Shown here piece after piece: positions 27,172 through 60,832 of a DNA stretch of 64,000 nt; the stretch's first letter is position 1; each line of letters opens with the position of its first letter. Below the pieces are notes generated by a model, which was not told where the DNA came from, did no database searches, and saw only the letters and a program-made list of their open reading frames with translations. The DNA is from an uncultured Methanomicrobiales archaeon (GTDB lineage: Archaea > Halobacteriota > Methanomicrobia > Methanomicrobiales > Methanospirillaceae): positions 9,061-73,060 of the forward strand of contig CAILCG010000010.1 in NCBI GenBank assembly GCA_903832665.1, read 5' to 3'. A program made the position numbers and the translations under genes.

Positions 27172-27196
27172 GAATAATGGTAGCACGTATAAATTA

Positions 27197-28520: not shown

Positions 28521-28631
28521 TGGATGAGCGGCCGGGTGTTCTGATTGGGTCAGCGGCTGGAGGGGTTTCACGTCGGATGTGCTGAAATTTTTTCTCCATT
28601 TTTGGTTAAACGACTAGAAACGGATCGCAAT

Positions 28632-29387: not shown

Positions 29388-29456
29388 ATGGGGGTCAAGG
29401 GGATACGCCCCCTTGGGCTGCCTCCCCCATTGGGGGAGTGAGGGGGGTCACCATCG
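29388..29456 (-). repeat. dispersed ~65-nt two-hairpin intergenic element, copy 1
   Basis: The reverse complement is GATGGTGACCCCCCTCACTCCCCCAATGGGGGAGGCAGCCCAAGGGGGCGTATCCCCTTGACCCCCAT. It matches 62350-62413 at roughly 80-85% identity. Confidence 0.65.
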
Positions 29457-29521
29457 CAATTTCCACTGAGCGTGAAAAATGATTTCTCCAGAGCAAAAAA
29501 GACATAAAAAAAAAGATTGAT

Positions 29522-29911
29522 TCACTCCGGCGCAAACTTTGTGCCGTAGTGGATGATGCCGCTCTCGCCATCGGTGGCGATCCTGCGGAAGATGCTCTTG
29601 ACCCGCATCCCGATCTTTGCTTCGCTGGGGTCGCAGACGATCTGGGTGGTCATCTGGGGGCCTTCATCGAGCTTGATGATGGCGAGCACATACGGCCCGT
29701 GGGAAGCGAACTGGTCGGGTGCCGTCTGGATGATCGTGTACGTGACAATGGTTCCCTTGCCGGAAAACTTGTGATCTACGACTTTGCCTTCCCTGCGGCA
29801 GTCGGGGCAGAAGGTTCGCGGGGGGAAGAAGTGACGCTTGCAGGTCTCGCACTTGGTCCCGATCAGGTTGTAGCGCTGGGGAATCTTTCTCCAGAATCGT
29901 GCAACAGACAT
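29522..29911 (-). CDS. DUF35 OB-fold/zinc-ribbon protein (scaffold subunit of the archaeal thiolase/HMG-CoA synthase complex)
   Basis: Starts MSVARFWRKIPQRYNLIGTKCETCKRHFFPPRTFCPDCRR. It lies immediately downstream of the thiolase gene. Confidence 0.8.
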   Translation of the reverse strand: MSVARFWRKIPQRYNLIGTKCETCKRHFFPPRTFCPDCRREGKVVDHKFSGKGTIVTYTIIQTAPDQFASHGPYVLAIIKLDEGPQMTTQIVCDPSEAKIGMRVKSIFRRIATDGESGIIHYGTKFAPE

Positions 29912-29912
29912 T

Positions 29913-31079
29913 TCAGACCCTCCCGAGGATGTGAACCGCAACCGTAGCACCGGTACCGCCAACGTTCTGTGTCATGCCGATCTTTGCGCCGTCGATCTGG
30001 CGTTTGCCCGCGGTGCCGCGAAGCTGCTGGACGATCTCGTACACCTGCTTGATGCCGGTTGCTCCGACCGGGTGGCCGCAGGCCTTGAGGCCGCCGCTCG
30101 TGTTGACCGGGATCTTGCCGCCAAGGGCAGTCTCGTCGTCAGCAGTGAACTTGCCGGCGGTACCCTTCTTGCAGAACCCGAGGTCCTCGATGGCACAGAG
30201 CTCTGCTATCGAGAAACAGTCATGTACTTCTACCATGTTGATGTCCTTGTGCGTCAGCTTGGCCATCTTGAACGCCCGCTGGCCGGCTGCGACGGTCGCG
30301 TCCATGGTCGAGATGTCCCTGCGGTCATGGAGGGCGATCGAGTCGCTAGCCTGTGCGGTTGCGAGCACCTTGATCGGGGTGTCGGTGAACTCACGGGCCC
30401 GGTCGAGCGGTGCGAGGATGACTGCCGCTGCCCCATCGGTGATGGGTGAGCAGTCGAAGAGCCGGAGGGGCTCGGCCACCATGGTGGATCGCAGCACAGT
30501 ATCAAGGGTGATCTCCTGCTGGAACTGGGCGATCGGGTTGCGGGCGCCATTGTAATGGTTCTTCACCGCAACCTGTGCCAGCTGTTCGCGGGTCATGCCG
30601 TACTTGTGCATGTAGTCTTTGGCGATCATCGCATAGAGGCCGGGGAATGTCGCTCCGACAAACCCTTCCCACTCGCGGTCAGCAGCACCGGTGAGGGCAT
30701 CGGTGCTTGCGCCGGGCTCCACATCGGTCATCTTTTCGACACCTGCTGCAACCACGATATCTTCCATACCGCTGGCAACAGCGATCACTGCCTGCCGGAA
30801 GGCAAGCCCGCCGGATGCGCAGGCCGCTTCGACCCGGGTTGACGGGATGTGACGGGTTGCCATGCCCGCGTAGTCAGCGATCAGGGCACCGATGTGCTCC
30901 TGCTCGATGAAACGGCCGGCACTCATGTTGCCGACATACATCGCATCGATCTTCTCACCGGAGAGCTGGGCATCCTCAAGGGCAAGCGCCCCGGCCTCCA
31001 CGAACATATCCCGGAAGGATTCCGACCATTTCTCACCGAACCGGGTGCATCCAATTCCAATCACTGCTACGTCTCTCAT
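29913..31079 (-). CDS. acetyl-CoA acetyltransferase (acetoacetyl-CoA thiolase)
   Basis: 388 aa with [16 protein letters not shown], active-site region VEAACASGG and C-terminal GGTGATVAV. Confidence 0.85.
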
Positions 31080-32128
31080 GATTGCATCACCAGTTTTCCC
31101 TTGTGCTGGGCATATCGCGCATAGTCAAGGTAGATGGGATTCTTAAGCTGCTGTTCGACTCCCGGTGCTGCATCGCGTTTGAACACGTCTGACTTGATGG
31201 CATCGGTCACTTCAATATCGAACGCATCGCTGCCTGCTCCTGATCCGAACGAGCAGACAAAGATCGTGTCGCCCGGCTTGGCAATATCGAGCGTTGCTGC
31301 AAGGCCAATGGGTGAAGCGCCGGAGTAGGTATTGCCGAGGCGCGGTACTACGAGGCCCGGCTTGATCTGCTCGGTAGTGAACCCGAGATCCTTTGCTGCT
31401 TTCTGCGGGAACTTTGCGTTGGGCTGGTGGAAGACCGCATAGGTGAAGTCCTTAGGTGACTTTTTGGTCTGCTCCAGAAGAAGGTTGCTTGCGCCCTTCA
31501 CATGCTTGAAGTAGCCGGGATCGCCGGTGAACCGACCGCCGTGGCGGGGGTAATCCTGTCCTTCGCGGCGCCAGAAGTCGGGCGTGTCGGAAGTGAACGA
31601 GCAGGTGTGGTGGATCGTGGCGATCGGGTCGTTGTTCCCGATCACGTAGGCCGCACCGCCCGCTGCTGCCGTATATTCGAGCGCATCGCCCGGTGCCCCC
31701 TGCGAGACATCGGAACCAATGGCAAGCCCGAACGGAATCATGTTGCTCTTGACCATACCCATACAGGTCTGGATCGCAGCAGTGCCCGCCTTGCAGGCGA
31801 ACTCAAAATCTGCGGCGGTCATGTTGGGGGTAGCACCGATGGCTTCCCCGACCGTGCACGCAGTGGGTTTCACGGCATACGGGTGCGACTCGCTGCCCAC
31901 ATAGACGGCCCCGATATCTTTGGGGTCGACATACCTGCGCAGGAGTGCGTTTCGTGCCGCTTCAACCGCGATCGTTGCGGCGTCTTCGTCCAGGTCGGGA
32001 ACGGACTTCTCAAAAACGCCCAGTCCACCGGTAATATCTGCGGCATTTGCACCCCAGACCCGGGCAATCTCTTCGACCTTAATTCGATATCTCGGTATAT
32101 ACACACCGTAAGTAATAATGCCTACCAT
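31076..32128 (-). CDS. HMG-CoA synthase (archaeal type)
   Basis: 350 aa with [16 protein letters not shown]...[11 protein letters not shown]...[13 protein letters not shown] overlap with the thiolase gene. Confidence 0.85.
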
Positions 32129-32844
32129 TCTTTGTCCCTCAAAGTACTCACGATTTTATCCACATCCATGCTCGTACACAGCACGGTGATGCGATCGCGT
32201 TCCGCCATTTTTTCCACTATTGGGTGGACATCTGCTGCTTCGATACCCTGCAGCACCACACATCGCGGCTTGAACGGCGTTACCCGGATCGCTACCATCG
32301 GTGATTTCCCGGTCGAGACATTGGTAAAGACCAACGCCCGTTCCGTGCTCCAGCCGTACAGGCGATTGAACTCATCGGATGAGAGTTGCATGATCGCGTT
32401 TAAGCTGTTGACCACGGTATAGCCAAAGATGGTCTGGTCCATGGATCCGCAGAGTAATGTGCAGCCTATCGCTTCGGAAAAATCTTTCAGCGCAACAGGT
32501 GTGCCGTACTCGTGGAGGTCATAAATCACATCATCGTCAACTGCCGAAAAGAGCATGGTTGAGAATTTTTCAATATGTTTTCCGCCGGTCTCCTCATCAG
32601 TGGTGAGGAGCGTATCGACAATTTTGCCGACAACAGCGGTTCCAGGGCTTTTTCTCCGTCCGCTCTCGTAATCACTGATTACAGACGGTGAGACGCCAAG
32701 GCGTTCGGATAAAACGCCGGGTGCGATCTCGAAATTCATGCGCCACTTTTTGAGCGCATGCCCCGGTGAGTCCGACAGCGTTATCTCACCTGCCATCTTT
32801 TCGGCAAGCTGGTTCCGCTTTCCGGATTTCATGCTCATTAACAA
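32122..32844 (-). CDS. XRE-type HTH regulator with C-terminal domain, first gene of the thiolase/HMGCS operon
   Basis: Contains [34 protein letters not shown] (HTH_3-like). It overlaps HMGCS by 7 nt. Confidence 0.55.
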
Positions 32845-32956
32845 AGACCCATGGAGTTATATAATTAGCGAACGCGCATTCGACAGTGAACGAACGCCGA
32901 CGAAGAATTTTCCGGAGGGCAACCCATAAATAGGGGGCAACTCAATTTTGATAATC

Positions 32957-33622
32957 ATGATACCCGCTGAAGATCTCCCGTGTCTCAAAGCCATTGCACT
33001 GCGGGGCGGTTGCAAGGGCCCGGTCTTTGTCTCCACGCAGAGCATCGGCACAATGCTTGCGATCAGCCAGCAGACTGCATCGCGACGACTGAAAGGTCTT
33101 GAAACCCAGGGACTGATCACCCGGACCCTTTCTGCAGACGGCCAGCATGTTACTCTTACCAAACATGGAGAGGATGAGCTGCGCCGCGAATTCCAGGAAT
33201 ATTCCCGGATATTTACCGAGGGTGGGAAGACCTATGTCCTGAATGGTGCCGTGGTCTCGGGGATTGGGGAAGGAAAATACTACATGAGCCTTCCCAGTTA
33301 CAAGGAACAGTTCAACACCCATCTCGGGTTTGAGCCGTACCCGGGCACCCTTAACATTCGTCTGGCTCCCACCAGCATTCCGGTGCGCAAGAAGATCGAC
33401 GCGCTCGAATGGACCCGCATCAAGGGATTCTCCACGGACGGGCGGACCTTTGGCGATGCGAAATGTATTCCGTGCCGGATTGGTTCGATCTCCTGCGGGA
33501 TCGTGATGCCTGGAAGGACCCATTACCCCGAGGACATCATCGAAGTGATTGCCCCGATGGCGCTGCGCCGGAAACTCGGTGTCGAGGACTCGGACAGCGT
33601 GAGTGTCGAGGTGGGGCCGTGA
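32957..33622 (+). CDS. ribK: CTP-dependent riboflavin kinase fused to an N-terminal winged-helix domain (RbkR-type architecture)
   Basis: N-terminal wHTH (STQSIGTMLAISQQTASRRLKGLETQGLI), followed by VVSGIGEGKYYMSL...GFEPYPGTLNIRL, typical of the archaeal MJ0056-type kinase. Confidence 0.75.
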   Translation: MIPAEDLPCLKAIALRGGCKGPVFVSTQSIGTMLAISQQTASRRLKGLETQGLITRTLSADGQHVTLTKHGEDELRREFQEYSRIFTEGGKTYVLNGAVVSGIGEGKYYMSLPSYKEQFNTHLGFEPYPGTLNIRLAPTSIPVRKKIDALEWTRIKGFSTDGRTFGDAKCIPCRIGSISCGIVMPGRTHYPEDIIEVIAPMALRRKLGVEDSDSVSVEVGP

Positions 33623-34299
33623 TGGATGAGGCGCTTGCAGCGCTCCGTGACGGGAAGTTCATTCTTCTCTATGATTTCGCCGACCGCGAAGGCGAGACGG
33701 ATTTTGCGATCCGCTCGGATGCGGTCAAACCAAAGGATATCCTGCGGATGCGCAAGGATGGCGGTGGATTGATCTGTACTGCTGTCCACCCGATTGCTGC
33801 CCAGCGGCTCGGTCTCCCGTTTGCCAGCGATGCCCTCCGGGCGATTGCGGTTGCGGAACGGGAAGGCGATATCCCGTACGACCGGAAGAACCACTCCTCC
33901 TTCTCGCTCTGGGTGAACCACCGCAATACCTTCACCGGTATCACCGACCGGGACCGCACCCTGACGGTCAACGCGATTGCCGAGCAGGTGAAGCTGGCGC
34001 TGAACGGTGGCAGTGTCAACTTCCATGAGACGTTCCGCACGCCGGGCCACATGGCGCTTCTTCGGGCGGCAGACGGTCTTCTCGATGTACGGAAGGGCCA
34101 GACCGAGCTCTCGATCGCGATGGCCGAAATGGCGGGGATCACGCCGGCGGTCACCATCTGCGAGATGCTGGACGATGAATCCGGCAATGCCCTCTCAAAG
34201 GAAGATGCAATGCGCTATGCCCGGAAGCACGGGCTCGTGTTTGTCGAAGGGCCGGAAGTCCTTGAACAGTGGGAAGCGGATAAAAACAGGAAAAAATAG
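33622..34299 (+). CDS. ribB: 3,4-dihydroxy-2-butanone 4-phosphate synthase
   Basis: Starts MDEALAALRDGKFILLYDFADREGETDFAI and later has RTPGHMALLRA. ATGA overlap with ribK. Confidence 0.8.
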   Translation: MDEALAALRDGKFILLYDFADREGETDFAIRSDAVKPKDILRMRKDGGGLICTAVHPIAAQRLGLPFASDALRAIAVAEREGDIPYDRKNHSSFSLWVNHRNTFTGITDRDRTLTVNAIAEQVKLALNGGSVNFHETFRTPGHMALLRAADGLLDVRKGQTELSIAMAEMAGITPAVTICEMLDDESGNALSKEDAMRYARKHGLVFVEGPEVLEQWEADKNRKK

Positions 34300-34392
34300 A
34301 AATTTCTTTTTTTGACTAACGTTTTTGACGACCGATATGCCAATTTTCCCAGTATGGCAACCTGAAGGTCAAATTTTTAACACAGATGCCGG

Positions 34393-35151
34393 TCAGGCTT
34401 TTCCCCGGATCATCCGGGTGACCTGCTCGCGGATCCGGATAAATTCTGGATCAGCCTTATCCCGGGGATAGGGGAGATCGATAGGCAGGATATCAGACAC
34501 CACTGCCGGCCTCCCTGAGAGAATGACTATCCGGTCCGCAATATAGATCGCCTCCTCCGGATTATGCGTCACCATGAGAAAGGTGGTTTTCAGGTCCTGC
34601 CGTATTCTCACTACCTCATCCTCAAGTTCTCTCCGGGTGAAGGTGTCGAGCGCAGAGAACGGCTCATCCATCAGGAGGATTGAGGGTTTGATGGCCAGCG
34701 CCCGGGCAACCGAGGCTCGCTGCTTCATACCACCGGATAGCTGATGAGGGTAAGAGAGTGCAAACGCGGTTAAGTGGGTGAGATCCAGAAGCGATTCTGC
34801 CCGCTTTGCGATCTCCTCTTCCGGCAGATTCTGCACGGAAAGCCGGAGGCCGTACACAATGTTCTCATAGACCGTGAGCCACGGGAAGAGAGCATGGTCC
34901 TGGAAGACCATGGCCACGGATGGCTTTCCGTCTTTGTTACCGGCTGTCTGGGAAATCCTGCCTGCATCCGCGGAATCGAGGCCCCCGATGATCCGGAGCA
35001 GCGTGGACTTGCCGCAGCCGGAGGGTCCCATTATGCAGACGATCTCCCGGGCGGCGACATCAAAAGAGATCCCGGCAAGAGCAGGACAGGACTTTTCATT
35101 ATCCCGGAACGTCTTTACGATCCCGTCAAGGGAGAGAACCGGCTCCATCAT
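34393..35151 (-). CDS. ABC transporter ATP-binding protein (NitT/TauT, nitrate/sulfonate/taurine type)
   Basis: Walker A GPSGCGKST, signature LSGGMKQR, Walker B LLMDEP. Start at 35151 (ATGA overlap with the permease gene). Confidence 0.8.
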   Translation of the reverse strand: MMEPVLSLDGIVKTFRDNEKSCPALAGISFDVAAREIVCIMGPSGCGKSTLLRIIGGLDSADAGRISQTAGNKDGKPSVAMVFQDHALFPWLTVYENIVYGLRLSVQNLPEEEIAKRAESLLDLTHLTAFALSYPHQLSGGMKQRASVARALAIKPSILLMDEPFSALDTFTRRELEDEVVRIRQDLKTTFLMVTHNPEEAIYIADRIVILSGRPAVVSDILPIDLPYPRDKADPEFIRIREQVTRMIRGKA

Positions 35152-35933
35152 TCCCTCCCCTGCCAGCCAAAGAGCCTTTCCTGTCCAGCCCGGAAGAGAG
35201 TATCCGCCCCGAGGCCTATGACGCCGATGATGATCATCCCGGCGCCAATCACCTGGAGCTGGCCAAGTTTGTAGGCATACATGATCAGATAACCAAGGCC
35301 GGCTGTTGTCCCGGGCAACATCTCTGCAGCAACCACGCACATCCATGCCACGCCAAACGAAACGCGGAGGCCGTTCCAGATCACCGGAAGCGCACCGGGA
35401 AGGATGACGGTGCGGAGCTGCTCGAACGTAGTAGCATGGAAGGTCTCCGCTACTTCGATCCACCGCAGACGAACCCCCTGCACCCCGTCAACGGTATTGA
35501 TCAGGATCGGGAAGAACGCACCCATGCCAATGATGAAGAGGATGGAATTAAAACCGATACCGAACCATGCGATGGAAAACGGCATCCAGGCAATCGGGGG
35601 GACCGGGCGAAGGATCTGGATAGTGGGGTTGAGATATTTCTGAACTTCTTTGGACCAGCCGATGAAGAGGCCGAGCGGGATGGCAACAGCGGCTGCACAG
35701 AGGAACCCGGTGAGGACCTCCCTGAGGCTTTGGATCGTGTTCTGGATCAGGGACTCGCCGCCAAGAACCGGTGCTGCCGGTTGGAGCAGTACGGAAAAAA
35801 TTTCACCGAGCCGCGGGAGGATGTAATTGTTCTGTATCATGAGGGCAAAACCCTCCCAGCTGATCAGGAGGATGACGATGAGTGCCAGTCCTTTGCCGTA
35901 ATCACGGATATTCTGCTTCGAAATCAGTACCAT
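35148..35933 (-). CDS. ABC transporter permease (NitT/TauT type)
   Basis: 261 aa with 6 TM helices and a BPD-type inner-membrane component pattern. Confidence 0.75.
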   Translation of the reverse strand: MVLISKQNIRDYGKGLALIVILLISWEGFALMIQNNYILPRLGEIFSVLLQPAAPVLGGESLIQNTIQSLREVLTGFLCAAAVAIPLGLFIGWSKEVQKYLNPTIQILRPVPPIAWMPFSIAWFGIGFNSILFIIGMGAFFPILINTVDGVQGVRLRWIEVAETFHATTFEQLRTVILPGALPVIWNGLRVSFGVAWMCVVAAEMLPGTTAGLGYLIMYAYKLGQLQVIGAGMIIIGVIGLGADTLFRAGQERLFGWQGRE

Positions 35934-36519
35934 AGAATTTCACCGAGATGTTCTCATACGCAAACGCTTCCCGTACCATGTCTTCTTGGATCGAGCTCTG
36001 GACCGTGGCAATAACCACCGGCTTACCATGAGCAGAGCGGCCTTTCACCCATGTGACAAAGCCCGTCCAGTTATTACAGGGAGCCTTGTTCCCGACAACC
36101 AGCCCGGACCCTCCGGTGTTGATAGACTGGATGATGGATGACGGGTTGCCCAGACCGATCTGCTGTTCCGCAGGAACCGATCCCACAAAGGCCCCGTCGA
36201 GCGCATTCTGGCCGACGGTGGTCATGATGCCTCCGCCGGACTGTCCGGGGACGAGATTGACATGGGCAAACGTCTCTCCCCGCACAAAGAGTGTGCAGGA
36301 GACCGGGCGGGATGCTTTCGGATCATCAGGGACAAGGCAGAATCCGTACCGGTCGCAGAAATACGTAGAATCCTTGACCATGACGTAGAGGGGGGCGTAA
36401 TTATCGGTCGAAGATATATAGCCGAGGCCGAGGGTAGGTATGTTCGAGTCAGCCACAGGAATCGATACGTTTGTCAGGTACTGCTGCGCCTGTCGTGCAA
36501 CGGCAGGGTTCATCATCAA
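35902..36519 (-). CDS. NMT1/SsuA-like substrate-binding protein segment (equivalent to the N-terminal two thirds), no signal peptide
   Basis: Contains TLGLGYISSTDNYAPLYVM...GGGIMTTVGQNALDGAFVGSVPAEQ...GGSGLVVG...IATVQSSIQEDMVREA. The track start is TTG. Confidence 0.5.
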   Translation of the reverse strand: MMMNPAVARQAQQYLTNVSIPVADSNIPTLGLGYISSTDNYAPLYVMVKDSTYFCDRYGFCLVPDDPKASRPVSCTLFVRGETFAHVNLVPGQSGGGIMTTVGQNALDGAFVGSVPAEQQIGLGNPSSIIQSINTGGSGLVVGNKAPCNNWTGFVTWVKGRSAHGKPVVIATVQSSIQEDMVREAFAYENISVKFYGTDFEAEYP

Positions 36520-37121
36520 CAGGGGATTATATGTGCTGTTCGGTGTTTTTTTAATAATGCTCCCGACAATACCGGATTCGGGGGGACTGCTCGGGCCGTA
36601 AAGACAATGTTGGCAAAGGCGTGCTTCTCGACATCAAGCGGCTGAAGCGACCCCGCGGGGGTCAGGATCGGGTTCTTTCCATAGACCCAGGCTGCGGTGA
36701 TATTTTCTGCCAGTGCCTGGTCCTCCTGGGTACGGTTTATCGCTGCTATTGTAAGGGAGGAGAACAGGGCTGAGGTGTTCGGGTAATTTTTGATGAAATC
36801 ATTGCGCAGTACCATTACATTGATGGCCTGATCATTCCATTTTCCCGGGGGAGGGAGATCGGATGGGACCGCGATGCATTTTCCAATGCCGGAGAGCTCG
36901 GCATTCGAGACCACCGGCTCCCATATCAGGAATGCATCGATCTGACCGGTATTGAGCAGCTGGCCCATTGAGCCGGAGGATGCGTATAAAAGATACACGG
37001 ATGGGCGATTATCGATGGGTTGGATAAGCCCGGGCACTACATTGTAACAGAGCAGAAAGATCAGAAACACCAGGATACATCCCGCAATGATGAGTTCCCG
37101 GTACGGCGTGTGTCGTGGCAT
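36516..37121 (-). CDS. membrane-anchored NMT1/SsuA-like substrate-binding protein segment (equivalent to the C-terminal third)
   Basis: N-terminal TM LIIAGCILVFLIFLLCY, then GQLLNTGQIDAFLIWEPVVSNAE...VMVLRNDFIKNYPNT. Confidence 0.5.
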   Translation of the reverse strand: MPRHTPYRELIIAGCILVFLIFLLCYNVVPGLIQPIDNRPSVYLLYASSGSMGQLLNTGQIDAFLIWEPVVSNAELSGIGKCIAVPSDLPPPGKWNDQAINVMVLRNDFIKNYPNTSALFSSLTIAAINRTQEDQALAENITAAWVYGKNPILTPAGSLQPLDVEKHAFANIVFTARAVPPNPVLSGALLKKHRTAHIIPC

Positions 37122-37268
37122 GAATGGATCGTTATCGATATGTATGAGATCCGGATATATATGCTAAAAGGTTTTCTCATCGCACCGGGTGAGACGTATG
37201 CATAGTATTCGACTCTCCCTGAGCATTTCATCACTCTTATTACCCATTCACCCCAAATTTTTATCAGC

Positions 37269-38453
37269 ATGAAAGTCCCTCTCACCGAACTCGAAGACCG
37301 GCTGAATCGTTTCCGGGCCCGGATGGACAGCGCCCGGCCCGGCTGGGAGCTTGCGGCGATAGTCGGAAAGATCCCCCTCTATTATTTCACCGGCACCATG
37401 CAGGACGGGCTCCTGCTCATCCCGCTTGACGGCGAGGCGGTGTTCTGGGTCCGGCAGAGCTTCGAGCGGGCACAGGACGAGTCACTCTTCCCGGACATCC
37501 GGCCGATGAGAAGCTACCGGGATGTAGCAGCGGGCATGGGCAGTCTCCCATCGACCGTGTATCTTGAGACCGACACGACGCCGATCGCCCAGCTTCAGCG
37601 GCTGCAGAAGTACCTCCCGTTTACGGATGTGCAGTCAGTTGATGAACAGGTAGGGGCAGTCAGGGCGGTCAAGAGCCGGTATGAACTCTCGTTGATGGAA
37701 CACGCCGGGAAGATTCACCGCCACGTGCTCGAAGACTGCATTCCCGGAATGCTCGCAGAAGGGATCGATGAGGTGGGGCTCACCTGCGATCTCTACTCCC
37801 TCATGATGAAGGAAGGTCACCAGGGCATCATCCGGTTCGGCATGTTCAACGAGATGCTGCTCGGGCAGATCGGGTTTGGCACCAGCTCCATCTCCCCAAC
37901 GTGTGTGAATACGCCCGGCGGTATTTTCGGCATGCACCCGTCCGTCCCGCTGATGGGTTGCCGGGAACGGAAACTGAAGAAGGGCGATATGGTCGTGATC
38001 GATATCGGGTGCGGGTACAAAGGATACCAGACCGACAAGACCCTGAGCTACATGTTCGGAAAGCCTATCCCCGATCAGGCGATACGGGAACATGAGCGAT
38101 GCGTGGCGATCCAGGATCAGCTTGCGGCGCTCCTCAGGCCGGGTGCCATCCCGTCAGAGATCTATACTGCAGTCGTGGAGGGACTTGAGCCGGAGTTCCA
38201 GAACAACTTCATGGGATTCGGGAAACACAAGGTCAAGTTCCTTGGTCACGGGATCGGGCTCTGGATCGATGAGATGCCGGTCATTGAGGAGGGATTCGAT
38301 GAACCTCTTCAGGAAGGAATGGTCTTTGCTCTCGAACCCAAGAAGGGAATTCCGGATGTCGGGCTTGTGGGCATTGAGAATACCTTTATCGTAACACCGC
38401 AGGGTGGCCTTTCGATCACCGGAAAAAGCAAGGGACTTATTGAAGTATACTGA
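37269..38453 (+). CDS. M24-family Xaa-Pro aminopeptidase
   Basis: 394 aa with a creatinase-N domain followed by a pita-bread fold (VVIDIGCGYKGYQTDKT...GHGIGLWIDE...ALEP...IENT). Confidence 0.75.
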   Translation: MKVPLTELEDRLNRFRARMDSARPGWELAAIVGKIPLYYFTGTMQDGLLLIPLDGEAVFWVRQSFERAQDESLFPDIRPMRSYRDVAAGMGSLPSTVYLETDTTPIAQLQRLQKYLPFTDVQSVDEQVGAVRAVKSRYELSLMEHAGKIHRHVLEDCIPGMLAEGIDEVGLTCDLYSLMMKEGHQGIIRFGMFNEMLLGQIGFGTSSISPTCVNTPGGIFGMHPSVPLMGCRERKLKKGDMVVIDIGCGYKGYQTDKTLSYMFGKPIPDQAIREHERCVAIQDQLAALLRPGAIPSEIYTAVVEGLEPEFQNNFMGFGKHKVKFLGHGIGLWIDEMPVIEEGFDEPLQEGMVFALEPKKGIPDVGLVGIENTFIVTPQGGLSITGKSKGLIEVY

Positions 38454-52269: not shown

Positions 52270-53145
52270 CTATTCTTTTTTTTGTCGTGCCAGGATCTCC
52301 GTAAGCGAAGATGTCGGGTAGTTTTTCAGGTAACCGGCAATCGCCGGTTCGTGGAGTAACGTACACCCCGCGCAGTTCCAGACCCGGTTCCCGGTGGAAC
52401 CCGCAGACCACTGCCCGAGACGCTCGTCTCCGCACGGGTAGAACGGGCAATAGCAGAAATCGCAGGACTGCCCGGCAAAGTGGCACGGGTAGTACGGGCA
52501 GTTGTGCGGAGTCCATTCCACCCAGTGATCTCCCTTGATCCGGCTGAAAACAAAAAATGACAGGCTGTGGTCCTGCACTTCGCTGTCATGACGCTGGATC
52601 GCATGCGGGATCCCGTGAAGGACCGCAGCCCGCACACGGAGACCGGTATCGGTCAGCCTGCCGGCGTTCCGGTGCTTCACCTCACCTTCGCAGGCAGCGA
52701 TCACCGCATCGGTCGGTGTGCCGCTCAGCGGGAGACCGAGTGCTGCAAGGGCTTCTGCCTTTGCCTCGGTTGCCACCATGATCGTCTCGAGCAGCGCGGC
52801 ATCCCCCATGCCTTCACTGCTGGTGACGATGATATTGATAGTCCCGGCCGACTCCATGGACTCACGCCGGATTCCTGCCGTGATGAAGACCGTTACGAAA
52901 TCATACTGGAGCACACAGCACTGCTGTATCGGAACCGCGGTGAGCAGCCCAAAGTATTCCGGAGAGAGCCCGGCACTCGCCGCAACCATCGCGAGCTCCT
53001 TTCCCGGATCCGCGTGGTCCCATCCCGAGAGAACGGTATGGTTAAAAAGTTCAGGGACCTGGCGTATGCCGCCATTTATGCCCGTGCTTGCGGCACGGAA
53101 CGAACCGCGAATGAAAAGAGTATGGGTATCTGAATAATATCTCAT
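52270..53145 (-). CDS. cbiZ: adenosylcobinamide amidohydrolase CbiZ fused to a C-terminal cysteine-rich small domain
   Basis: Starts MRYYSDTHTLFIRGSFRAASTGINGG... and has TINIIVTS. The C-terminal domain is NCPYYPCHFAGQSCDFCYCPFYPCGD...WNCAGCTLLH. Confidence 0.7.
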   Translation of the reverse strand: MRYYSDTHTLFIRGSFRAASTGINGGIRQVPELFNHTVLSGWDHADPGKELAMVAASAGLSPEYFGLLTAVPIQQCCVLQYDFVTVFITAGIRRESMESAGTINIIVTSSEGMGDAALLETIMVATEAKAEALAALGLPLSGTPTDAVIAACEGEVKHRNAGRLTDTGLRVRAAVLHGIPHAIQRHDSEVQDHSLSFFVFSRIKGDHWVEWTPHNCPYYPCHFAGQSCDFCYCPFYPCGDERLGQWSAGSTGNRVWNCAGCTLLHEPAIAGYLKNYPTSSLTEILARQKKE

Positions 53146-53504
53146 GCAACCGAATAGCGCGTACGGTCTTTGAGTTCCTGCTGTTTGCCGGCGTTCCATC
53201 CCGACACATCCTGCAGGTAACCGGTTACCCTGCTGATCTGGGTCACATCATGGGAACCGCATTCAGGGCAGACGGGTTTCCCGCAGAGCGGGCAGTACTC
53301 AATACCTGAAAGGATCTCATGGGAACAGTGGCAGTGATCGAGCGGACACATAATCTCAAGATGCGTCTCGCCACAATTCGGACACGGGCTCTCCTCCACG
53401 ATCAGGTGGCAGGTGTGGCACTTGTATTTACGTTCCTTTTCCGGAATCTCGTCTACGCTTTTGAATTTCTGTGCCAGTTTCCGTTGTTCTTCTGTCCAAT
53501 CCAT
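53142..53504 (-). CDS. stand-alone NrdD-C-terminal-like zinc-ribbon/glycyl-radical domain protein
   Basis: 120 aa. Has CHTCH...CPNCG and CPLCGKPVCPECG, then ISRVTGYLQDVSGWNAGKQQELKDR. The last segment matches the class III RNR glycyl-radical motif (RxxGYL...N-GK--E). Confidence 0.65.
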   Translation of the reverse strand: MDWTEEQRKLAQKFKSVDEIPEKERKYKCHTCHLIVEESPCPNCGETHLEIMCPLDHCHCSHEILSGIEYCPLCGKPVCPECGSHDVTQISRVTGYLQDVSGWNAGKQQELKDRTRYSVA

Positions 53505-55344: not shown

Positions 55345-55377
55345 TTTTTCCTGTCGGACTGGTTTTTCCTGTCGGAC
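55345..55377 (+). promoter_or_regulatory. 15-nt perfect direct repeat in a divergent promoter region (candidate operator)
   Basis: TTTTTCCTGTCGGAC occurs at 55345-55359 and again at 55363-55377, between dys (minus strand) and the 55571 operon (plus strand). Confidence 0.35.
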
Positions 55378-55570
55378 AGTTTGGAACGTATGAAAAAATG
55401 TGTACCCTGAATAAAAAATGAGTTTTTCAGAGGCCTGCGTAATGAATTGGCCTTTTTCTCATACGCTGCTGAAAAAAATTGAGCCTGTGAAAGGAAAAAA
55501 AGAGAAAAAAAAGATTTCCCGTAGTAATAAATGGGGAAGATATTTACCCTTTAAGAATTAGTCTATCCCT

Positions 55571-56137
55571 ATGAAAGACGTCCGGTTAACCGTCAAGAAG
55601 CGAGCTTTCCCGAGCCAGGGACGGGTGCGTCTCAATATAGCACACCTGCCCGAACTGGGAATAAAAGAAGGAGAACACGTAGATCTCATCAACGAAACTT
55701 CCAAAAAGACCGTGACTGCCACGGTAATTGCCGACACCATGGTGCGGGAAGGACAGGTACGGGTCAGTGAAGAGGATCTCAAGGCAGTCGGACTCAGCGA
55801 TGATGATGAGGTTCTTGTCAGGAAAACCCCGCCATTCCAGGAAAAGGTCAAAAAAGCAGCGGCAGATGCGAACAAATCCTTTTCAAAGAGTGTTGACAAG
55901 CTCGATGAATCGGTGAAAAAGACTGCGGTTAGCGTGAAGGCCGGCGCCGCAAAGACTGCCGCTTCCGTAAAAAAAGAGACCAAGAAAGTCTCGGACAGTG
56001 TTGAAGAAGTAGTTGCAAAAGCCACCGGCAAAGGGAAAAAATCAGTGAAAATGGAAAAAGCCGAAGAACCTGATCTCGAGAACAAATATGATGATCCCGT
56101 GTTTGATGACGCGGGATTCGATGATGAGCATCATTAG
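55571..56137 (+). CDS. Cdc48/VAT-N-domain-like (double-psi barrel) protein with Lys/Ala-rich acidic-ended tail
   Basis: Contains VRLTVKKRAFPSQGRVRLNIAHLPELGIKEGEHVDLINETSKKTVTATVIAD...GQVRVSEEDLKAVGLSDDDEVLVRK, followed by a low-complexity KKAA/KKT tail. Confidence 0.5.
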   Translation: MKDVRLTVKKRAFPSQGRVRLNIAHLPELGIKEGEHVDLINETSKKTVTATVIADTMVREGQVRVSEEDLKAVGLSDDDEVLVRKTPPFQEKVKKAAADANKSFSKSVDKLDESVKKTAVSVKAGAAKTAASVKKETKKVSDSVEEVVAKATGKGKKSVKMEKAEEPDLENKYDDPVFDDAGFDDEHH

Positions 56138-56193
56138 GCTACAATACATTTTTTTGGTTACGGATTAAAAAACCGTGAAGGGCTGAAAGATCA

Positions 56194-56577
56194 ATGGCAA
56201 CCGAAGCAATAATCACCGACACCGTTCTCATGGGAATCCTGGTTGTTCTCGCAATGGTGATCATCTACCTCATTGTCCGGGAGGTCCGCATTATGAAGAC
56301 GGCCAACCGCACAATTGAGCTGGAACTCGAAAAGGACAAACTCAAACTTTTGAAGCAGCACGAAGAATCCAAGGTCTTCCCATTTACCCGGCTCTCCCCG
56401 GAACAGACTGCCGAGATAAGATCTGTAGAAGATGACAATTCGAGCCTTGAAACCAACATCTATGCAAAGGAAAAACTGATCGAAACACGGTTGACCCGGC
56501 TCGAAAACCTGGTGAAAACAAGAAAACTGGATAATCTTCTGGGGAATATCCAGGAACAGGAGAAGCAGGTGAAATAA
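56194..56577 (+). CDS. membrane-anchored coiled-coil protein
   Basis: TM helix VLMGILVVLAMVIIYLIV, then heptad-rich ELELEKDKLKLLKQ...LIETRLTRLENLVKTRKLDNLL. Confidence 0.5.
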   Translation: MATEAIITDTVLMGILVVLAMVIIYLIVREVRIMKTANRTIELELEKDKLKLLKQHEESKVFPFTRLSPEQTAEIRSVEDDNSSLETNIYAKEKLIETRLTRLENLVKTRKLDNLLGNIQEQEKQVK

Positions 56578-56580
56578 ACC

Positions 56581-56898
56581 ATGTACCCGGTTATCAATCA
56601 GAACCCCGAACAGAACGCCACCGGAACGTCGTTCTGGGATCAGTTCTCTCATATCCAGGGGACGATCGAATCCTGCATACCCACGTTCGATAAATCGCTT
56701 GATGCATATTTTGACCAGAACTTTGCTGCCATCGTCGAAGAATGGGATCTCGTAACCGACAGCGATCTCCACAAACTGGAAACCCGGCTCGCGGCCGTGA
56801 GTGATGAGATCAGCAGTCTTTACGCGGGAAAGATGACCATCGAGAGTCGGGCAGAAAAGCTAGAGAACCTGATCTCATCTTTGGAGAAGTCATTATGA
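56581..56898 (+). CDS. small coiled-coil protein, EEWDLV-motif paralog 1
   Basis: Contains DAYFDQNFAAIVEEWDLVTDSDLHKLETRLAAVSDEISSL...KLENLISSLEKSL. It starts 3 nt after the preceding stop. Confidence 0.55.
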   Translation: MYPVINQNPEQNATGTSFWDQFSHIQGTIESCIPTFDKSLDAYFDQNFAAIVEEWDLVTDSDLHKLETRLAAVSDEISSLYAGKMTIESRAEKLENLISSLEKSL

Positions 56899-57116
56899 TC
56901 GGCGCGGATAATTACCTCCACGCATATGTCGACCGGAGGATGAAATACATCGTTGACGAGTGGGATCTCGCCACCCATCCCGATCTCTCTGATTTTGTGG
57001 GTCGCCTGTATGCCATCGAACAGGAGATCCCCCGGCTGAAATCCTTTGAGCACGCAGCATCGGACAAACTTACCGAGCTTGAAACCCGGGCCAACAAGCT
57101 GAAGGGGAGGATCTGA
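56895..57116 (+). CDS. small coiled-coil protein, EEWDLV-motif paralog 2
   Basis: Contains HAYVDRRMKYIVDEWDLATHPDLSDFVGRLYAIEQEI...LTELETRANKLKGRI. ATGA overlap with the previous gene. Confidence 0.55.
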   Translation: MIGADNYLHAYVDRRMKYIVDEWDLATHPDLSDFVGRLYAIEQEIPRLKSFEHAASDKLTELETRANKLKGRI

Positions 57117-57117
57117 T

Positions 57118-57474
57118 ATGGACGTACTGGAATTCATCATCATCGTCATTATCCTGTGTGCGCTCATCTTCCTGATCTATTATTTTATCAGGGGTGCAAA
57201 AGGCGACATCTCGCTTGCACGACCGGTAGAGAGCCGGGTGAACGAGTATCTTGACCGGAGATTCCAGAGCATGGTCGAGGAGTGGCAGCTCGTCTCCCAC
57301 CCAAAACTCCAGCAGTTCAAGGAACAGCACTACAAGGAGATCGAAAACGATGAAGCCCGTCTCGCCGAACTGAAGAACTATGAGGCCGGGATGCAGACCA
57401 CCCTGGTAAACTTGGAGGCGCGCCTTGACACTGTGGAAAAAGAGCTTGCCCGGAAAGACCCCGCCAAAAAGTAA
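57118..57474 (+). CDS. membrane-anchored coiled-coil protein, EEWDLV-motif paralog 3
   Basis: TM helix FIIIVIILCALIFLIYYFI, then NEYLDRRFQSMVEEWQLVSHPKLQQFKEQ...LVNLEARLDTVEKEL. It starts 1 nt after the previous stop. Confidence 0.55.
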   Translation: MDVLEFIIIVIILCALIFLIYYFIRGAKGDISLARPVESRVNEYLDRRFQSMVEEWQLVSHPKLQQFKEQHYKEIENDEARLAELKNYEAGMQTTLVNLEARLDTVEKELARKDPAKK

Positions 57475-57520
57475 GAACTCACCCGATCTCTTTGCCCAGC
57501 TGAAAGGCGAGATCACGGTG

Positions 57521-57733
57521 ATGCGAAAGCAGGGGGAGCCCCCGGTAAAGGATCCCCACAGCTTCGCCCAGTACATGTGCGATCTCTGCTCTACCCCTCA
57601 CCCGGTATCAGGGCTCCGCCAGTGTGTTCTCTGCGGGCGCTGGGCATGCAATACCTGCTGGAAGGATGAGTACTATACCTGCAAGTCCTGTGCGGGGATC
57701 ATCACCATTCACACGTTGAAGGGCAACGAGTGA
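57521..57733 (+). CDS. small 8-Cys zinc-finger protein
   Basis: 70 aa from MRKQGEPP. The Cys pattern is CDLC-x13-CVLCGRWACNTC-x7-CKSC, four CxxC pairs. The track ORF starting at 57425 overlaps the previous gene. Confidence 0.45.
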   Translation: MRKQGEPPVKDPHSFAQYMCDLCSTPHPVSGLRQCVLCGRWACNTCWKDEYYTCKSCAGIITIHTLKGNE

Positions 57734-57933
57734 AGCCTGAATTTTCCTGCTCCCATTTTTGACAGGGGCTGCGTAAAATCCCCCTGATCTTTTTTTCACT
57801 CAATCGAGAAGGCCGTAAAGTCAGTCGCGATCATTTCCCATCAATGATCCCAAGACAATGGTGTAAAGGTCCGGCCGGGATTACCGCAGCCGGCGAAATG
57901 TAGGGCACAGACTTATTCTGCTCATATCATACC

Positions 57934-59127
57934 GTGTCTCAGCAGGACTCTGACCCGGGAAAACTAAAAGTTTCACTAGGTTTAATGCTCTTGATACCAA
58001 GAGTTGTAAAATCCCCTACGGTGATACCATTGGCTGTTGGCACAACTCATACAGAAATCCAGACCGGTGTTTCCCTCAGGCAGATTATCCGGGACGAATT
58101 ATCGGCAGTTCAGCACAACCGGGCTGAACTCATGAGAGCAGATGGGCACCCGGGAATCAAGGGACTGGTTCTTCTCGTATGTTTCCTGGCAAATATTATT
58201 CTGGCACTGGTCCGTCCTGATTATTTCGGACTGTTCATTGCCGCCAGCTTCTATCTCAACATGTATTATTTCATCACCCTCATGATTCCGACAAATTTCC
58301 AGAAAGGTGGTCTCCCGGCAGCAGACCTTTCGCGGTTCCACTCGTGGCTCAAAGAGATCGGGGTAACCTCCGGCACAACCCAGTTCACCCGGTTGTTTAT
58401 CAATTCCCTCTTCATGAACAGCCGGGCCCTGTCACTCGGCATCGGGTTGATCTTCTCGATCGATATCGTGTTTGTTCTCATTCATTTCAACCGGGGACTT
58501 CCCCTCAGGACCACGCTCATCGTGATTGCCCAGTGCTCCATCATCGTCATATTTTACCTGCTGGTCTGGAAAGTCGAGCCGTTTTCTACCACCTATGTAA
58601 AAAAAGTGGAGAAGATGAAGAGCACCCTTCACCGGCAGAAACTGCCGCCCCAGCTGGTGACGGGAATGTTCATCTTCGGGTTTTTACTGGCGATATTCCT
58701 CTTCCTGACTACCATTATCTACCTGCCGGGAGTGACCCTGAACGCATTTCTAAACCAGTCGCAGCTGACCGAGCTCGGTCACCTCTTCAGCCTTCTTGCC
58801 ATCCTGGCAGTCAGCCAGTATTTTATCATCCGGTACATCCACGGCTTTACCAGCAGGACAATGGCAAACCGGCTCTTCGACTTCAAGGTGCAATCCCTGC
58901 AGGAACTGCTTGATGCTGAGGACGAAACCCTGGCCGGAAGTCAGGATCCTGGCAAAAATCCGCTCGAGACGAGTGCACTCCTGCTGGAATCCAAGATCTT
59001 CATCATAAAGCGCAATTCTCTTGCCGGGACATTTCCGGTCTTTGTTGTCGACCTTGACTTTTCAGTGATGATGGACAGCACGACCCTGACTACCATCAAG
59101 GGTTATATTGTCGAGAAAAAACAGTGA
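57934..59127 (+). CDS. hypothetical polytopic membrane protein
   Basis: 397 aa from a GTG start, with about 7 hydrophobic helices and a soluble C-terminal ~90 aa. No family recognised. Confidence 0.45.
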   Translation: MSQQDSDPGKLKVSLGLMLLIPRVVKSPTVIPLAVGTTHTEIQTGVSLRQIIRDELSAVQHNRAELMRADGHPGIKGLVLLVCFLANIILALVRPDYFGLFIAASFYLNMYYFITLMIPTNFQKGGLPAADLSRFHSWLKEIGVTSGTTQFTRLFINSLFMNSRALSLGIGLIFSIDIVFVLIHFNRGLPLRTTLIVIAQCSIIVIFYLLVWKVEPFSTTYVKKVEKMKSTLHRQKLPPQLVTGMFIFGFLLAIFLFLTTIIYLPGVTLNAFLNQSQLTELGHLFSLLAILAVSQYFIIRYIHGFTSRTMANRLFDFKVQSLQELLDAEDETLAGSQDPGKNPLETSALLLESKIFIIKRNSLAGTFPVFVVDLDFSVMMDSTTLTTIKGYIVEKKQ

Positions 59128-59190
59128 GAGATCGCGGCTCAATTTTTTAAAACTCTGAAAAATCCATACCCTTTAATAATCAAAAACAAA

Positions 59191-59634
59191 ATGAACCGCA
59201 TGGAAAACTGTAGTATTTGCGGGATATCAAAAGCCCAGGTTGCAGGAATGATCGGAGCGGTCCTGCTCATCATCGGATGCTTTGTGCCGTTATTTTCCGT
59301 GTCGGTGCTGGGAAAATCCCTGTCGATCACGTTCATGACCCCCGGGTTCGACATTTACGGTGGGGCGTTGATCCTCTCGGCCCTCGTGATCATCGGCCTC
59401 CTCTGGTTAAAGAAGGTCCAGGAAGCCCAGGGTGCCGGCATCGTGGTCTTCATCACGATCCTGGTATTTTTCATGGATGCAATGACCGGGTATAGCGGGA
59501 TAAAGAATATGGGAATTATTGCATCGTTTGCCGCAGGATTTTTCAGTTTCGGATATGCCTGGCTCGTACTCTTTGCCGGTGCAATCCTGGTAATTGCCGC
59601 GCAGTATGTTGACCGGTTATTCCTGGTCAAGTAA
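59191..59634 (+). CDS. hypothetical 4-TM membrane protein
   Basis: 147 aa with an N-terminal CSICG motif followed by four hydrophobic helices. Confidence 0.45.
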   Translation: MNRMENCSICGISKAQVAGMIGAVLLIIGCFVPLFSVSVLGKSLSITFMTPGFDIYGGALILSALVIIGLLWLKKVQEAQGAGIVVFITILVFFMDAMTGYSGIKNMGIIASFAAGFFSFGYAWLVLFAGAILVIAAQYVDRLFLVK

Positions 59635-59744: not shown

Positions 59745-59996
59745 CTGAGGTCAAATAAGCCCAGTGCGGGCTCCGTTTCCGGGAATTGGATCCGGGAAAG
59801 GCCGTAAAACAGCCGGATCCAGACATCTTCGGAAATTCCCTCAATTATCACTTTGATTACCCAAATACGAGCGGAAACACCCTCTCCGGATGCCCGCCAA
59901 AGGTCAGTAAACCCAGGCAATTTTCGCCACCTGCTTTGCTCCATCCGGGCACCCGAAACCCAACCGGAATGAGAATACGAGGATCTTTTTTCCGGG
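59745..59996 (+). repeat. ~250-nt non-coding direct repeat, copy R1
   Basis: Aligns with 60578-60832 at a constant offset of 833-835 nt. The core CGGAAACACCCTCTCCGGATGCCCGCCAAAGG (59872-59903) is 32/32 identical to 60706-60737. Confidence 0.75.
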
Positions 59997-60047: not shown

Positions 60048-60431
60048 TCAGTCGAGATAGTTCCGTAATTTCTTAACAAGAGCAAGCTGATTCTTTGCTT
60101 CGAGTTTTTTCTCTTCTTCAATGGAGTTCATGATTGCATTGATGGGTTTTGCCAGCTCGTAGATCTTTACCGGCCGACCTTTGTTCTCGGGGGGAATCTC
60201 ACTGCTTTTAATCCAGCCCTGGTCTGTCAGGTACTTTGTTGCAATGCTGATTTCGGGCTGCCGCATGTCGGTCCCGTGTTCGATTGCCCTGGAGCTTGCT
60301 TTCGGTGTGCCCGCAAGGAACACCAGCACCTTTGCAATGGTCTTCTTTGTTCCAATCTCCACCAGCAGACTGGTGAACTCTTCTTCTTTTTCGGTAAAAT
60401 ATTCAACATTCTCCTCTCTCAAGTGAACCAC
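60048..60431 (-). CDS. ArsR/TrmB-like winged-helix transcriptional regulator
   Basis: 127 aa with IAKVLVFLAGTPKASSRAIEHGTDMRQPEISIATKYLTDQGWI...KGRPVKIYEL. Confidence 0.6.
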   Translation of the reverse strand: MVHLREENVEYFTEKEEEFTSLLVEIGTKKTIAKVLVFLAGTPKASSRAIEHGTDMRQPEISIATKYLTDQGWIKSSEIPPENKGRPVKIYELAKPINAIMNSIEEEKKLEAKNQLALVKKLRNYLD

Positions 60432-60577: not shown

Positions 60578-60832
60578 GTTAAACCCGAATAAGCCCTCTG
60601 CGGGCTCCTTTAACCAAAACCGGTTCCGGGAAACCCCGTAAAATCGCCGGATTCTGACACCCTCGAAAATACCCTCAAATATTGCCCTGATTGCCCAAAA
60701 ACGAACGGAAACACCCTCTCCGGATGCCCGCCAAAGGGCACTAAATCGTGGCTTTTTTCGCCATCTGGTTTAGCCCATCATGGTCGTCCGGATTCAAACA
60801 GAATATGCATGGGAAGGACATTTTTTCCGGCC
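60578..60832 (+). repeat. ~250-nt non-coding direct repeat, copy R2
   Basis: See R1. Both copies share the AATAAGCCC-NNNG-CGGGCTCC hairpin, the 32-nt core and the TTTTTTCCGG end. Confidence 0.75.

Follow-up and report, generated by a model that had tools for sequence, protein, structure and literature searches.

A conserved archaeal operon proposed to encode a membrane-anchored helical scaffold with a Cdc48-N-type barrel and a Prok-RING_2 zinc finger

The phasin family PF05597 comprises polyhydroxyalkanoate (PHA) granule proteins of the PhaF/PhaI type, and the Prok-RING zinc-finger families were reportedly defined by Burroughs, Iyer and Aravind in Mol Biosyst in 2011. The phage shock protein (Psp) system, which responds to envelope stress, combines the bitopic leucine-zipper proteins PspB and PspC with PspA, which is helical and peripheral, and the N-terminal region of Cdc48/p97/VAT contains a double-psi beta-barrel (DPBB; the Nn subdomain) in the same protein as an Nc beta-clam subdomain and AAA+ domains. 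Archaeal PRC-barrel proteins are numerous and functionally diverse, and their genes often adjoin Cdc48 genes; among them, Haloferax requires CdpB1/2 to divide, and CdvA combines a PRC barrel with a coiled coil in one protein (PMC10120694). Here, we compare with these systems a cluster of six genes, O1 to O6, from an uncultured Methanomicrobiales archaeon, a methanogen of the Methanoregula type. The cluster lies in a stretch of 64,000 nucleotides (nt), hereafter the window, which covers positions 9,061 to 73,060 of contig CAILCG010000010.1 (assembly GCA_903832665.1). We tentatively prefer, at a little short of an even chance, a reading in which the products of O1 to O6 would form a scaffold, with no enzymatic activity, at the cytoplasmic side of the cell membrane. 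We place the operon outside all characterised kinds of system, that is, as uncharacterised rather than demonstrably unprecedented. No description of the operon or of the contexts of DUF7607 or PF14445 was found in the full-text literature covered; the 2011 paper said to define the Prok-RING families falls outside that coverage and may already note part of the neighbourhood. The system was also not mentioned in the papers of Makarova and Koonin on archaeal membrane proteins and PRC barrels.

Reading of the sequence located all eight open reading frames (ORFs) listed in a preliminary description of this region, O1 to O8, on the plus strand between 55571 and 59634, and public gene callers predict the same O1 to O8 on metagenome contigs with identical proteins. 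The six genes of the conserved module and the signals at its two ends are as follows.

Promoter element GGAAGATATTTACC, 55535-55548, plus strand: TATA-like ATATTTA at 55540-55546; putative promoter.
O1, 55571-56137, plus strand: 188 amino acids; predicted barrel, amphipathic helix and acidic C-terminal tail.
O2, 56194-56577, plus strand: 127 amino acids; predicted single-pass membrane protein.
O3, 56581-56898, plus strand: 105 amino acids; predicted soluble paralog.
O4, 56895-57116, plus strand: 73 amino acids; predicted to be the smallest soluble paralog.
O5, 57118-57474, plus strand: 118 amino acids; predicted membrane-anchored paralog.
O6, 57425-57733, plus strand: 102 amino acids when read from TTG; basic N-terminal extension and Prok-RING_2 finger.
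Two T-runs 3' of O6, 57756-57796, plus strand: T5 at 57756-57760 and T7 at 57790-57796; candidate oligo-T terminators.

A conservation scan with the O6 alignment as query and one genome per GTDB species returned 73 loci, all of which belonged to Methanomicrobiales. A six-frame ORF census of these loci with iterated profiles demonstrated very strong synteny, with the order O1-O2-O3-O4-O5-O6 present in nearly every locus long enough to hold it. This order was observed in Methanoregula, Methanolinea, Methanospirillum and Methanoculleus, as well as in Methanomicrobiaceae and in the additional metagenome-assembled genome GCA_964353765.1; Methanospirillum lacunae strain Ki8-1 (locus L067) carries the cluster on a complete chromosome. 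Clustering of the flanking ORFs at the 73 loci revealed no further gene conserved with the cluster outside Methanoregula. The module is vertically inherited and conserved.

The six genes are separated by short and largely invariant junctions. O1 and O2 are spaced by 56 nt, O2 and O3 by +3 nt, and O4 and O5 by +1 nt, and O3 and O4 overlap in an ATGA (56895-56898). The spacings of +3 nt, ATGA and +1 nt agree with the preliminary description, whereas the gap of approximately 47 nt that it placed between O5 and O6 holds only if O6 begins at the ATG at 57521. The start codon aligned across orthologs was TTG in 62 sequences and ATG in 10 (TTG or ATG in 72 of 73), and the 32-residue N-terminal extension that it opens is conserved at the protein level and tolerates an in-frame insertion of 18 residues; the internal methionine encoded at 57521 was kept in only 45 of 75 orthologs. 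Because the start codon and the extension are conserved and the internal methionine is less so, the start of O6 was set at 57425, which yields a 50-nt overlap with O5. Across the loci, the O3/O4 junction was -4 in 65 of 66, the O5/O6 junction was -50 in 54 of 71, and the O4/O5 junction was +1 or -4.

When more than 60 orthologous upstream regions were aligned at the O1 ATG, a TATA-like box or a TATATA-type equivalent was centred approximately 28 nt before that codon; the form GGAAGATATTTACC occurs in Methanoregula and the TATATA type in other genera. A TATA box only about 28 nt ahead of the ATG implies a leaderless or near-leaderless transcript. Downstream, a run of five or more T was found within 150 nt of the O6 stop codon in 67 of the 73 loci by raw count, and the runs after O6 are candidate terminators at which transcription presumably ends. 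The overlaps, the promoter element and the T-runs are all conserved across loci, in support of the operon with translational coupling that had been proposed earlier. The best explanation is that O1 to O6 form a single transcription unit, with a predicted leaderless TATA promoter, translationally coupled genes and a predicted oligo-T terminator. An Rfam scan of the window from 52 to 64 kb detected no RNA family. A tandem 18-nt repeat (TTTTTCCTGTCGGAC..) was observed at 55345-55380, in the divergent intergenic region between a deoxyhypusine synthase gene and O1, and may be a binding site for a regulator.

Four of the products, O2 to O5, are predicted to be helical. The preliminary description had reported a common signature in three of them, and the three segments that it quoted were found verbatim in O3, O4 and O5; the motif of O3 reads Y-x-D-x4-I-[VI]-E-E-W-D-L-[VA]-T and is followed by a helical C-terminus. 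BLASTP matched O3 with O4 at 5e-12, O4 with O5 at 4e-11 and O3 with O5 at 3e-7. Comparison by hhalign of the O3, O4 and O5 profiles (approximately 70 orthologs each) gave probabilities of 97-98%, and the paralogy is visible even at the DNA level as a 40-nt repeat with 78% and 68% identity. O3, O4 and O5 are thus assessed, from alignments at both levels, as true paralogs, far beyond chance. O2, which had not been credited with the signature, was tried as a fourth paralog and rejected, with hhalign below 33% over the last approximately 20 amino acids only. More than 700 homologs of O5 were found, and the O3/O4/O5 family as a whole is small, with approximately 100 genuine representatives at 50% identity.

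Hydropathy analysis agreed with the earlier view that the helical proteins comprise two with a membrane anchor and two soluble ones. O2 and O5 each contain a single N-terminal segment of strong hydrophobicity (mean Kyte-Doolittle value 3.0-3.25 over 19 amino acids; 3.02 in O2), and the same scan found no strongly hydrophobic segment in O3 or O4. The transmembrane (TM) helix of O2 spans approximately residues 10-28 and is followed by a basic juxtamembrane stretch and by a long helical region placed in the cytoplasm. Basic residues directly follow the TM helix in both O2 and O5, which suggests that the remainder of each protein is cytoplasmic. O2 had no Pfam or NCBIfam match above threshold. Its orthologs were found in every complete Methanomicrobiales locus, and its homologs extend to the Thermoplasmatota-like loci (7e-14) and to those of Methanobacteriales (9e-11). 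For O5, an AlphaFold2 model from a 56-sequence alignment comprised a TM helix (residues 3-27), a disordered linker and a continuous helix (37-113), with a pLDDT (predicted local confidence) of 70 and a pTM (predicted global fold score) of 0.27; a pTM this low would be expected for a bundle subunit modelled alone, and the model gives a fold search too little to work with. The last 20-25 or so residues of the O2 to O5 helices form the only clear regular zipper, and "coiled coil" is used for these proteins in a provisional sense.

The paralogs were earlier said to be unassignable to any family, which does not hold entirely, as two marginal relationships emerged. O5 matched DUF7607 (PF24580) with 23.2 bits (7.7e-5), under the gathering threshold of 27, and several close O5 orthologs bear a precomputed DUF7607 annotation; only 5 of 87 family members matched at E<=0.1, and the family can be equated with DUF7607 only marginally. 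The second relationship is with the phasins. Phasin (PF05597) was matched by 40 of the 87 O3/O4/O5 family members at E<=0.1, the best at 1.8e-6, and in five members inspected the match covered the C-terminal half of the model (approximately 55-126) including the conserved motif, with 13-17 bits versus a gathering cut-off of 28.8. In a reversed-sequence control, Phasin stood outside the 25 most-matched families, and one unrelated family reached 17 of 87. The O3, O4 and O5 proteins of the window themselves gave no Phasin match. The phasin comparison, originally offered as an analogy, may reflect distant homology at the level of the family, and such a link is probable but unproven. Like the phasins, the paralogs are predicted to be helical and associated with a hydrophobic surface; unlike them, one paralog (O5) is predicted to be embedded in the membrane and not to coat a granule. 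No PHA synthesis genes were present in the neighbourhoods examined. A profile of O3/O4/O5 searched against solved structures returned only generic coiled coils.

Two other analogies of the preliminary description found no sequence support. UbiK bears a superficial likeness to the paralogs in its motif (RLDLVSREEF versus EEWDLVTxxDL), and 3 of the 87 family members matched UbiK/BMFP (PF04380) weakly. UbiK homology was rejected in a direct test, in which the family hidden Markov model (HMM) gave Escherichia coli UbiK 9.0 bits, a score equalled by 1 of 200 shuffles, and UbiJ 6.0 bits, and did not align the motifs. A relationship to PspA or PspB was likewise rejected (PspA_IM30 in one homolog at E=0.0056; PspB against O5 at E=0.39). 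The Psp system nevertheless resembles the operon in its logic, as both would bring together small single-pass proteins with zippers in the cytoplasm, soluble helical proteins and an amphipathic element that binds the membrane; this is an analogy only, with no sequence relationship.

The amphipathic element would be supplied by O1. Residues 1-88 of O1 matched Pfam CDC48_N (PF02359) at 3.3e-7 with 30.8 bits, under the curated cut-off of 35.1, and the orthologs scored 18-27 bits. Two unrelated double-psi-barrel families were matched too, Molydop_binding with 27.7 bits (cut-off 26.8) and FwdD. In a search of solved structures, the profile of O1 orthologs hit DPBB designs derived from Cdc48-N at 1.7e-5 and Cdc48 itself at 0.023, and an internal beta-beta-alpha-beta duplication can be read in the sequence (QGRVRLN..LPELGIKEGEHVDL and EGQVRVS..LKAVGLSDDDEVLV). 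On the basis of the profiles and the visible internal repeat, residues 1-88 are assigned as a DPBB of the Cdc48/VAT N-terminal (Nn) type. Neither the Nc beta-clam subdomain nor AAA+ domains were detected, as no CDC48_2 or AAA matches were obtained with Pfam or NCBIfam. The earlier suggestion of a Cdc48-N-like protein without an ATPase thus stands for the double-psi half of that domain alone. O1 shares with the N domain of Cdc48/p97/VAT the Nn barrel and its internal duplication, and differs from it in the sub-threshold match, in the missing Nc and AAA+ parts and in a long amphipathic helix after the barrel, which had gone unnoted.

The 77 residues that follow the barrel (89-165) matched ApoA-IV (2.4e-5), apolipophorin-III and alpha-synuclein in profile searches of solved structures. 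Their hydrophobic power at a period of 3.6-3.67 residues was 81-100, compared to 9-10 for shuffled sequences, and none of 1,000 shuffles reached it. This segment is predicted to be one long amphipathic helix with 11/3 periodicity, of the type that binds lipid surfaces, and the helix of O1 presumably binds the membrane. The likeness to apolipoproteins and alpha-synuclein, in both periodicity and profile matches, would reflect a common repeat chemistry, and common descent is very unlikely. Approximately 45 of 67 distinct O1 orthologs (loci L003-L075) terminate in D-E-L, D-D-L or K-D-L, a possible docking motif; the lineage of the window has in place of D-[DE]-L an acidic C-terminal extension (..NKYDDPVFDDAGFDDEHH, 56066-56137). 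In the Methanospirillum orthologs of O1 (L067:7967-8785; also L063, L065 and L072), the barrel and the helix are followed at the C-terminus by a further domain, the ligand-binding TrkA_C (RCK_C; 1.2e-9).

The cradle-loop barrel group includes both barrels of the O1 type and the DNA-binding domains of the AbrB type. Accordingly, the operon might be read as a regulatory module, in which the O1 barrel and the O6 finger bind nucleic acid or sense a ligand and the membrane proteins sequester them in the manner of an anti-sigma system. Besides the barrel group, the TrkA_C domain of the Methanospirillum proteins, an AsnC/Lrp-type regulator gene that precedes the cluster in two Thermoplasmatota-like loci and the tandem 18-nt repeat in the divergent promoter region fit such a role. 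However, O1 matches the single-chain double-psi barrels of the Cdc48 type and not the swapped-hairpin AbrB dimers, no helix-turn-helix or other nucleic-acid-binding signature was detected, and a sequestration device built from five or six helical proteins of structural appearance would be unusually heavy. We regard this explanation as very improbable.

O6 matches a known family. The four-CxxC zinc finger that had been recognised earlier proved to be, specifically, Prok-RING_2 (PF14445), matched at 9.6e-37 with 125.4 bits against a cut-off of 22.4 over the whole model (1-56 of 56). Its eight cysteines form four CxxC pairs, as in the family, with the arrangement C-x2-C-x11-C-x2-C-x4-C-x2-C-x7-C-x2-C; in 14 sequences the ligands C52, C67, C70, C75, C78, C86 and C89 were invariant and C55 was nearly so. 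AlphaFold2 modelled the finger core with a pLDDT of approximately 90, and Foldseek against the PDB returned FYVE, PHD and one RING domain as top matches, all with E >0.1 and none significant. The cysteine spacing is closer to the PHD/FYVE consensus than to that of canonical RING, and in predicted fold and spacing together the finger appears at least as FYVE/PHD-like as RING-like.

The family name of O6, prokaryotic RING finger, and the Cdc48-N-type barrel of O1 would suit a membrane-tethered quality-control or modifier-targeting module similar in logic to endoplasmic-reticulum-associated degradation. O6 would then be an E3-like adaptor for SAMP, the archaeal modifier that resembles ubiquitin, the O1 barrel would bind substrates or dock to, or compete with, Cdc48/VAT, and the coiled coils would merely serve as anchors. 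One distant lineage has an HSP20 gene close to the operon and another a dnaK/dnaJ/grpE cluster; these point weakly in the same direction and may be coincidence. On the other hand, RING E3 systems differ from this operon in their partners: no E1, E2, ubiquitin-like, JAB peptidase, AAA+ or protease gene was conserved beside the cluster at the 73 loci and the distant loci, where adjacency alone was considered. The better fit of the PHD/FYVE spacing and the FYVE and PHD domains among the best, though non-significant, structural neighbours also speak against it. A role of this kind is in our estimation improbable, and the architecture of the distant loci bears on it further.

Two other versions of the operon were identified beyond Methanomicrobiales. 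A nine-gene version (type II) was found on contigs with paralogs most similar to Thermoplasmatota-named proteins and at 24 metagenome loci for which this paralog type served as the anchor. Its order is an O1 homolog (5.8e-13), a soluble paralog, a membrane paralog, an O2 homolog (7e-14) and a soluble paralog; then come genes for a coiled-coil protein with a zinc ribbon at its end, for a double PRC-barrel protein and for a small membrane protein. Next to this set, on either side, is a gene for Prok-RING_2 (1.4e-20). Despite the different gene order, one membrane and two soluble paralogs are retained together with O1, O2 and Prok-RING_2. A two-gene version (type III) occurs in Methanobacteriales, where an O2 homolog (~1e-10) overlaps a membrane paralog and both barrel and finger are absent. 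In the Methanobacteriales paralogs (L076:6001-6588, L086:6001-6627 and L085:6001-6465), the TM helix is separated from the conserved helix by Gly/Lys-rich G-M-G-E-K or G-x-G-E-K repeats, and these repeats may be functionally equivalent to the amphipathic tail of O1. In two soda-lake-type loci (L099:3126-3443 and L101:8736-9071), a different Cys-rich protein of approximately 105-111 amino acids stands in place of the Prok-RING_2 finger, and its gene has a P-loop NTPase-like one (N-terminus ..GTAGSGKTT..) in convergent orientation to it.

For the quality-control explanation, these versions count on both sides. The PRC-barrel genes that join the nine-gene version recall the adjacency of PRC-barrel and Cdc48 genes reported in archaea (PMC10120694), but the Methanobacteriales version does without finger and barrel, and the two soda-lake loci exchange Prok-RING_2 for the other Cys-rich protein.

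The PRC barrels also raise the question of a scaffold for cell division or envelope organisation, in which bitopic coiled coils like FtsB/FtsL/DivIC or CdvA would act with PRC-barrel proteins. The double PRC-barrel protein is constant in the nine-gene version (L077, L080, L082, L079, L093, L099-L101 and L110), and at one Methanobacteriales locus the two-gene core has a PRC-barrel gene shortly before it. CdpB1/2 and CdvA provide precedents (PMC10120694), the architecture of O2 and O5 is that of the bacterial bitopic divisome zippers, and weak DivIC matches were obtained in five members. However, neither the window nor the 10-kb surroundings of the cluster at the 73 Methanomicrobiales loci contained a PRC-barrel or zinc-ribbon homolog, and no ftsZ, sepF, cdv or min genes were linked to it. 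The functional diversity of archaeal PRC-barrel proteins (PMC10120694) weakens the argument, and the matches to DivIC, FlaC and the like are generic coiled-coil noise. We consider a scaffold of this kind an unlikely account of the operon.

We return to the non-enzymatic membrane scaffold, the reading we prefer. O2 and the three paralogs are strictly retained through the reshuffling of gene order, which argues that they are obligate, non-redundant subunits of one complex, and the conserved translational coupling also points to subunits of one complex. Scans with Pfam, NCBIfam, PADLOC and PHROGs detected no enzyme domain, in line with the preliminary description, and the complex is therefore argued to be structural or adaptor-like. 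In the proposed assembly, O2 and O5 would insert into the membrane via their N-terminal TM helices, and the long helix of O5 would pair with its homologous counterparts in O3 and O4 in a hetero-oligomeric helical bundle, which the C-terminal zipper of O2 would probably join. O1 would rest on the lipid surface through its amphipathic helix of 77 residues and display the Cdc48-N-type barrel, and O6 would display its cross-brace zinc finger on the same platform. Barrel and finger would be binding modules and not catalysts, through which the complex recruits or organises other proteins at the membrane. Since the minimal core consists of two bitopic helical proteins, a membrane platform would be the ancestral function; the repeats of the Methanobacteriales paralogs would possibly contact the lipid surface as the O1 helix would, and barrel, finger and PRC barrels would be binding modules added later. 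The amphipathic periodicity of the O1 tail and the phasin-like matches of the paralog family are in keeping with this reading. The gene structure, the paralogy, the assigned domains, the amphipathicity and the conserved gene set are demonstrated, and we infer from them the co-assembly, the topology, the contact of the O1 helix with the membrane and the scaffold or adaptor role of O1 to O6.

Several points weigh against this scaffold. The monomer model of O5 has a low pTM (0.27), and heptad periodicity across the whole O2 to O5 helices is weak and not significant. All Phasin matches are sub-threshold, and the relatedness of the members inflates their counts, as the 17 of 87 in the reversed control illustrates. 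Amphipathic helices like that of O1 are also known from helical bundles that are soluble. A role in proteostasis, instead of a structural one, could be indicated by the RING and Cdc48-N-like parts, and the gene set gives no pointer to the cellular process served.

Two membrane-protein genes that had been described together with the operon follow on the same strand.

O7, 57934-59127, plus strand: predicted polytopic membrane protein; neighbour, outside the conserved module.
O8, 59191-59634, plus strand: predicted small membrane protein; neighbour, outside the conserved module.

Both genes exist as reported, and neither is conserved with the cluster. An O7 homolog lies directly downstream in only approximately 15 loci, which without exception come from Methanoregula or from unclassified Methanomicrobiales relatives, and approximately 7 kb upstream in two more; a minority of Methanoregula loci have an O8 homolog close to the cluster, at a distance that varies. 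No family match was obtained for either protein in Pfam or NCBIfam. Membership of O7 and O8 in the operon was rejected on account of the non-conserved synteny and the T-tracts after O6. A 14-nt motif, TACCCTTTAA[GT]AAT, is found at 55545-55558, just 5' of O1, and again at 59167-59180, just 5' of O8, with 93% identity, which hints at a common promoter or regulatory element, although O8 lacks synteny elsewhere.

In Methanoregula, the cluster adjoins housekeeping genes (deoxyhypusine synthase and OMP decarboxylase). PADLOC and PHROGs revealed no defence or phage component, with only two marginal matches (E >0.003), and an origin in a defence island or prophage was rejected on these empty scans and the housekeeping neighbours in Methanoregula. 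Upstream of the cluster, the minus strand encodes at 53142-53504 a Cys-rich protein of 120 amino acids with a precomputed Pfam NRDD match, which overlaps the start of a CbiZ-like gene (52270-53199) by 58 nt; this NRDD/CbiZ-like pair and the OMP decarboxylase and deoxyhypusine synthase genes are conserved upstream of the cluster in Methanoregula only. Downstream, a small winged-helix-like gene (60048-60431, minus strand) stands between the two copies of a 192-nt direct repeat (59754-59945 and 60588-60779, 79% identity). Each copy contains a spurious ORF with the common peptide GGHPERVFP[LF]VFG, and the repeat had no Rfam match. Elsewhere in the window, the G+C content is 0.55-0.61 over approximately 16 kb (22001-38000), compared to 0.45-0.52 on either side.

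The archaeal parts list for membrane organisation, division and repair is still largely missing, and the module described here, which is compact and made of chemically recognisable parts, belongs in that context. In its most far-reaching form, which we consider doubtful, the proposal is that the operon encodes an unrecognised archaeal membrane machine composed of a hetero-oligomeric bundle of two anchored and two soluble helices together with a barrel of the NSF/Cdc48-N type and a FYVE/RING-like finger, to which some lineages would add PRC barrels. Such a machine would organise or remodel the membrane, in division, shape, vesicle formation or stress repair, independently of FtsZ, ESCRT and PspA, and would exist in one-, two- and three-tier versions in Methanomicrobiales, Thermoplasmatota-like lineages and Methanobacteriales. 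On a cautious view, the operon is one more conserved piece of archaeal "dark matter" that serves a process not yet nameable. The two-, six- and nine-gene architectures provide a natural dissection series. If O6 were an E3-like adaptor, the operon would represent a RING-type module in archaea for which, to our knowledge, no E2 is known; if its products form a structural complex, they would constitute a new family of membrane scaffolds.

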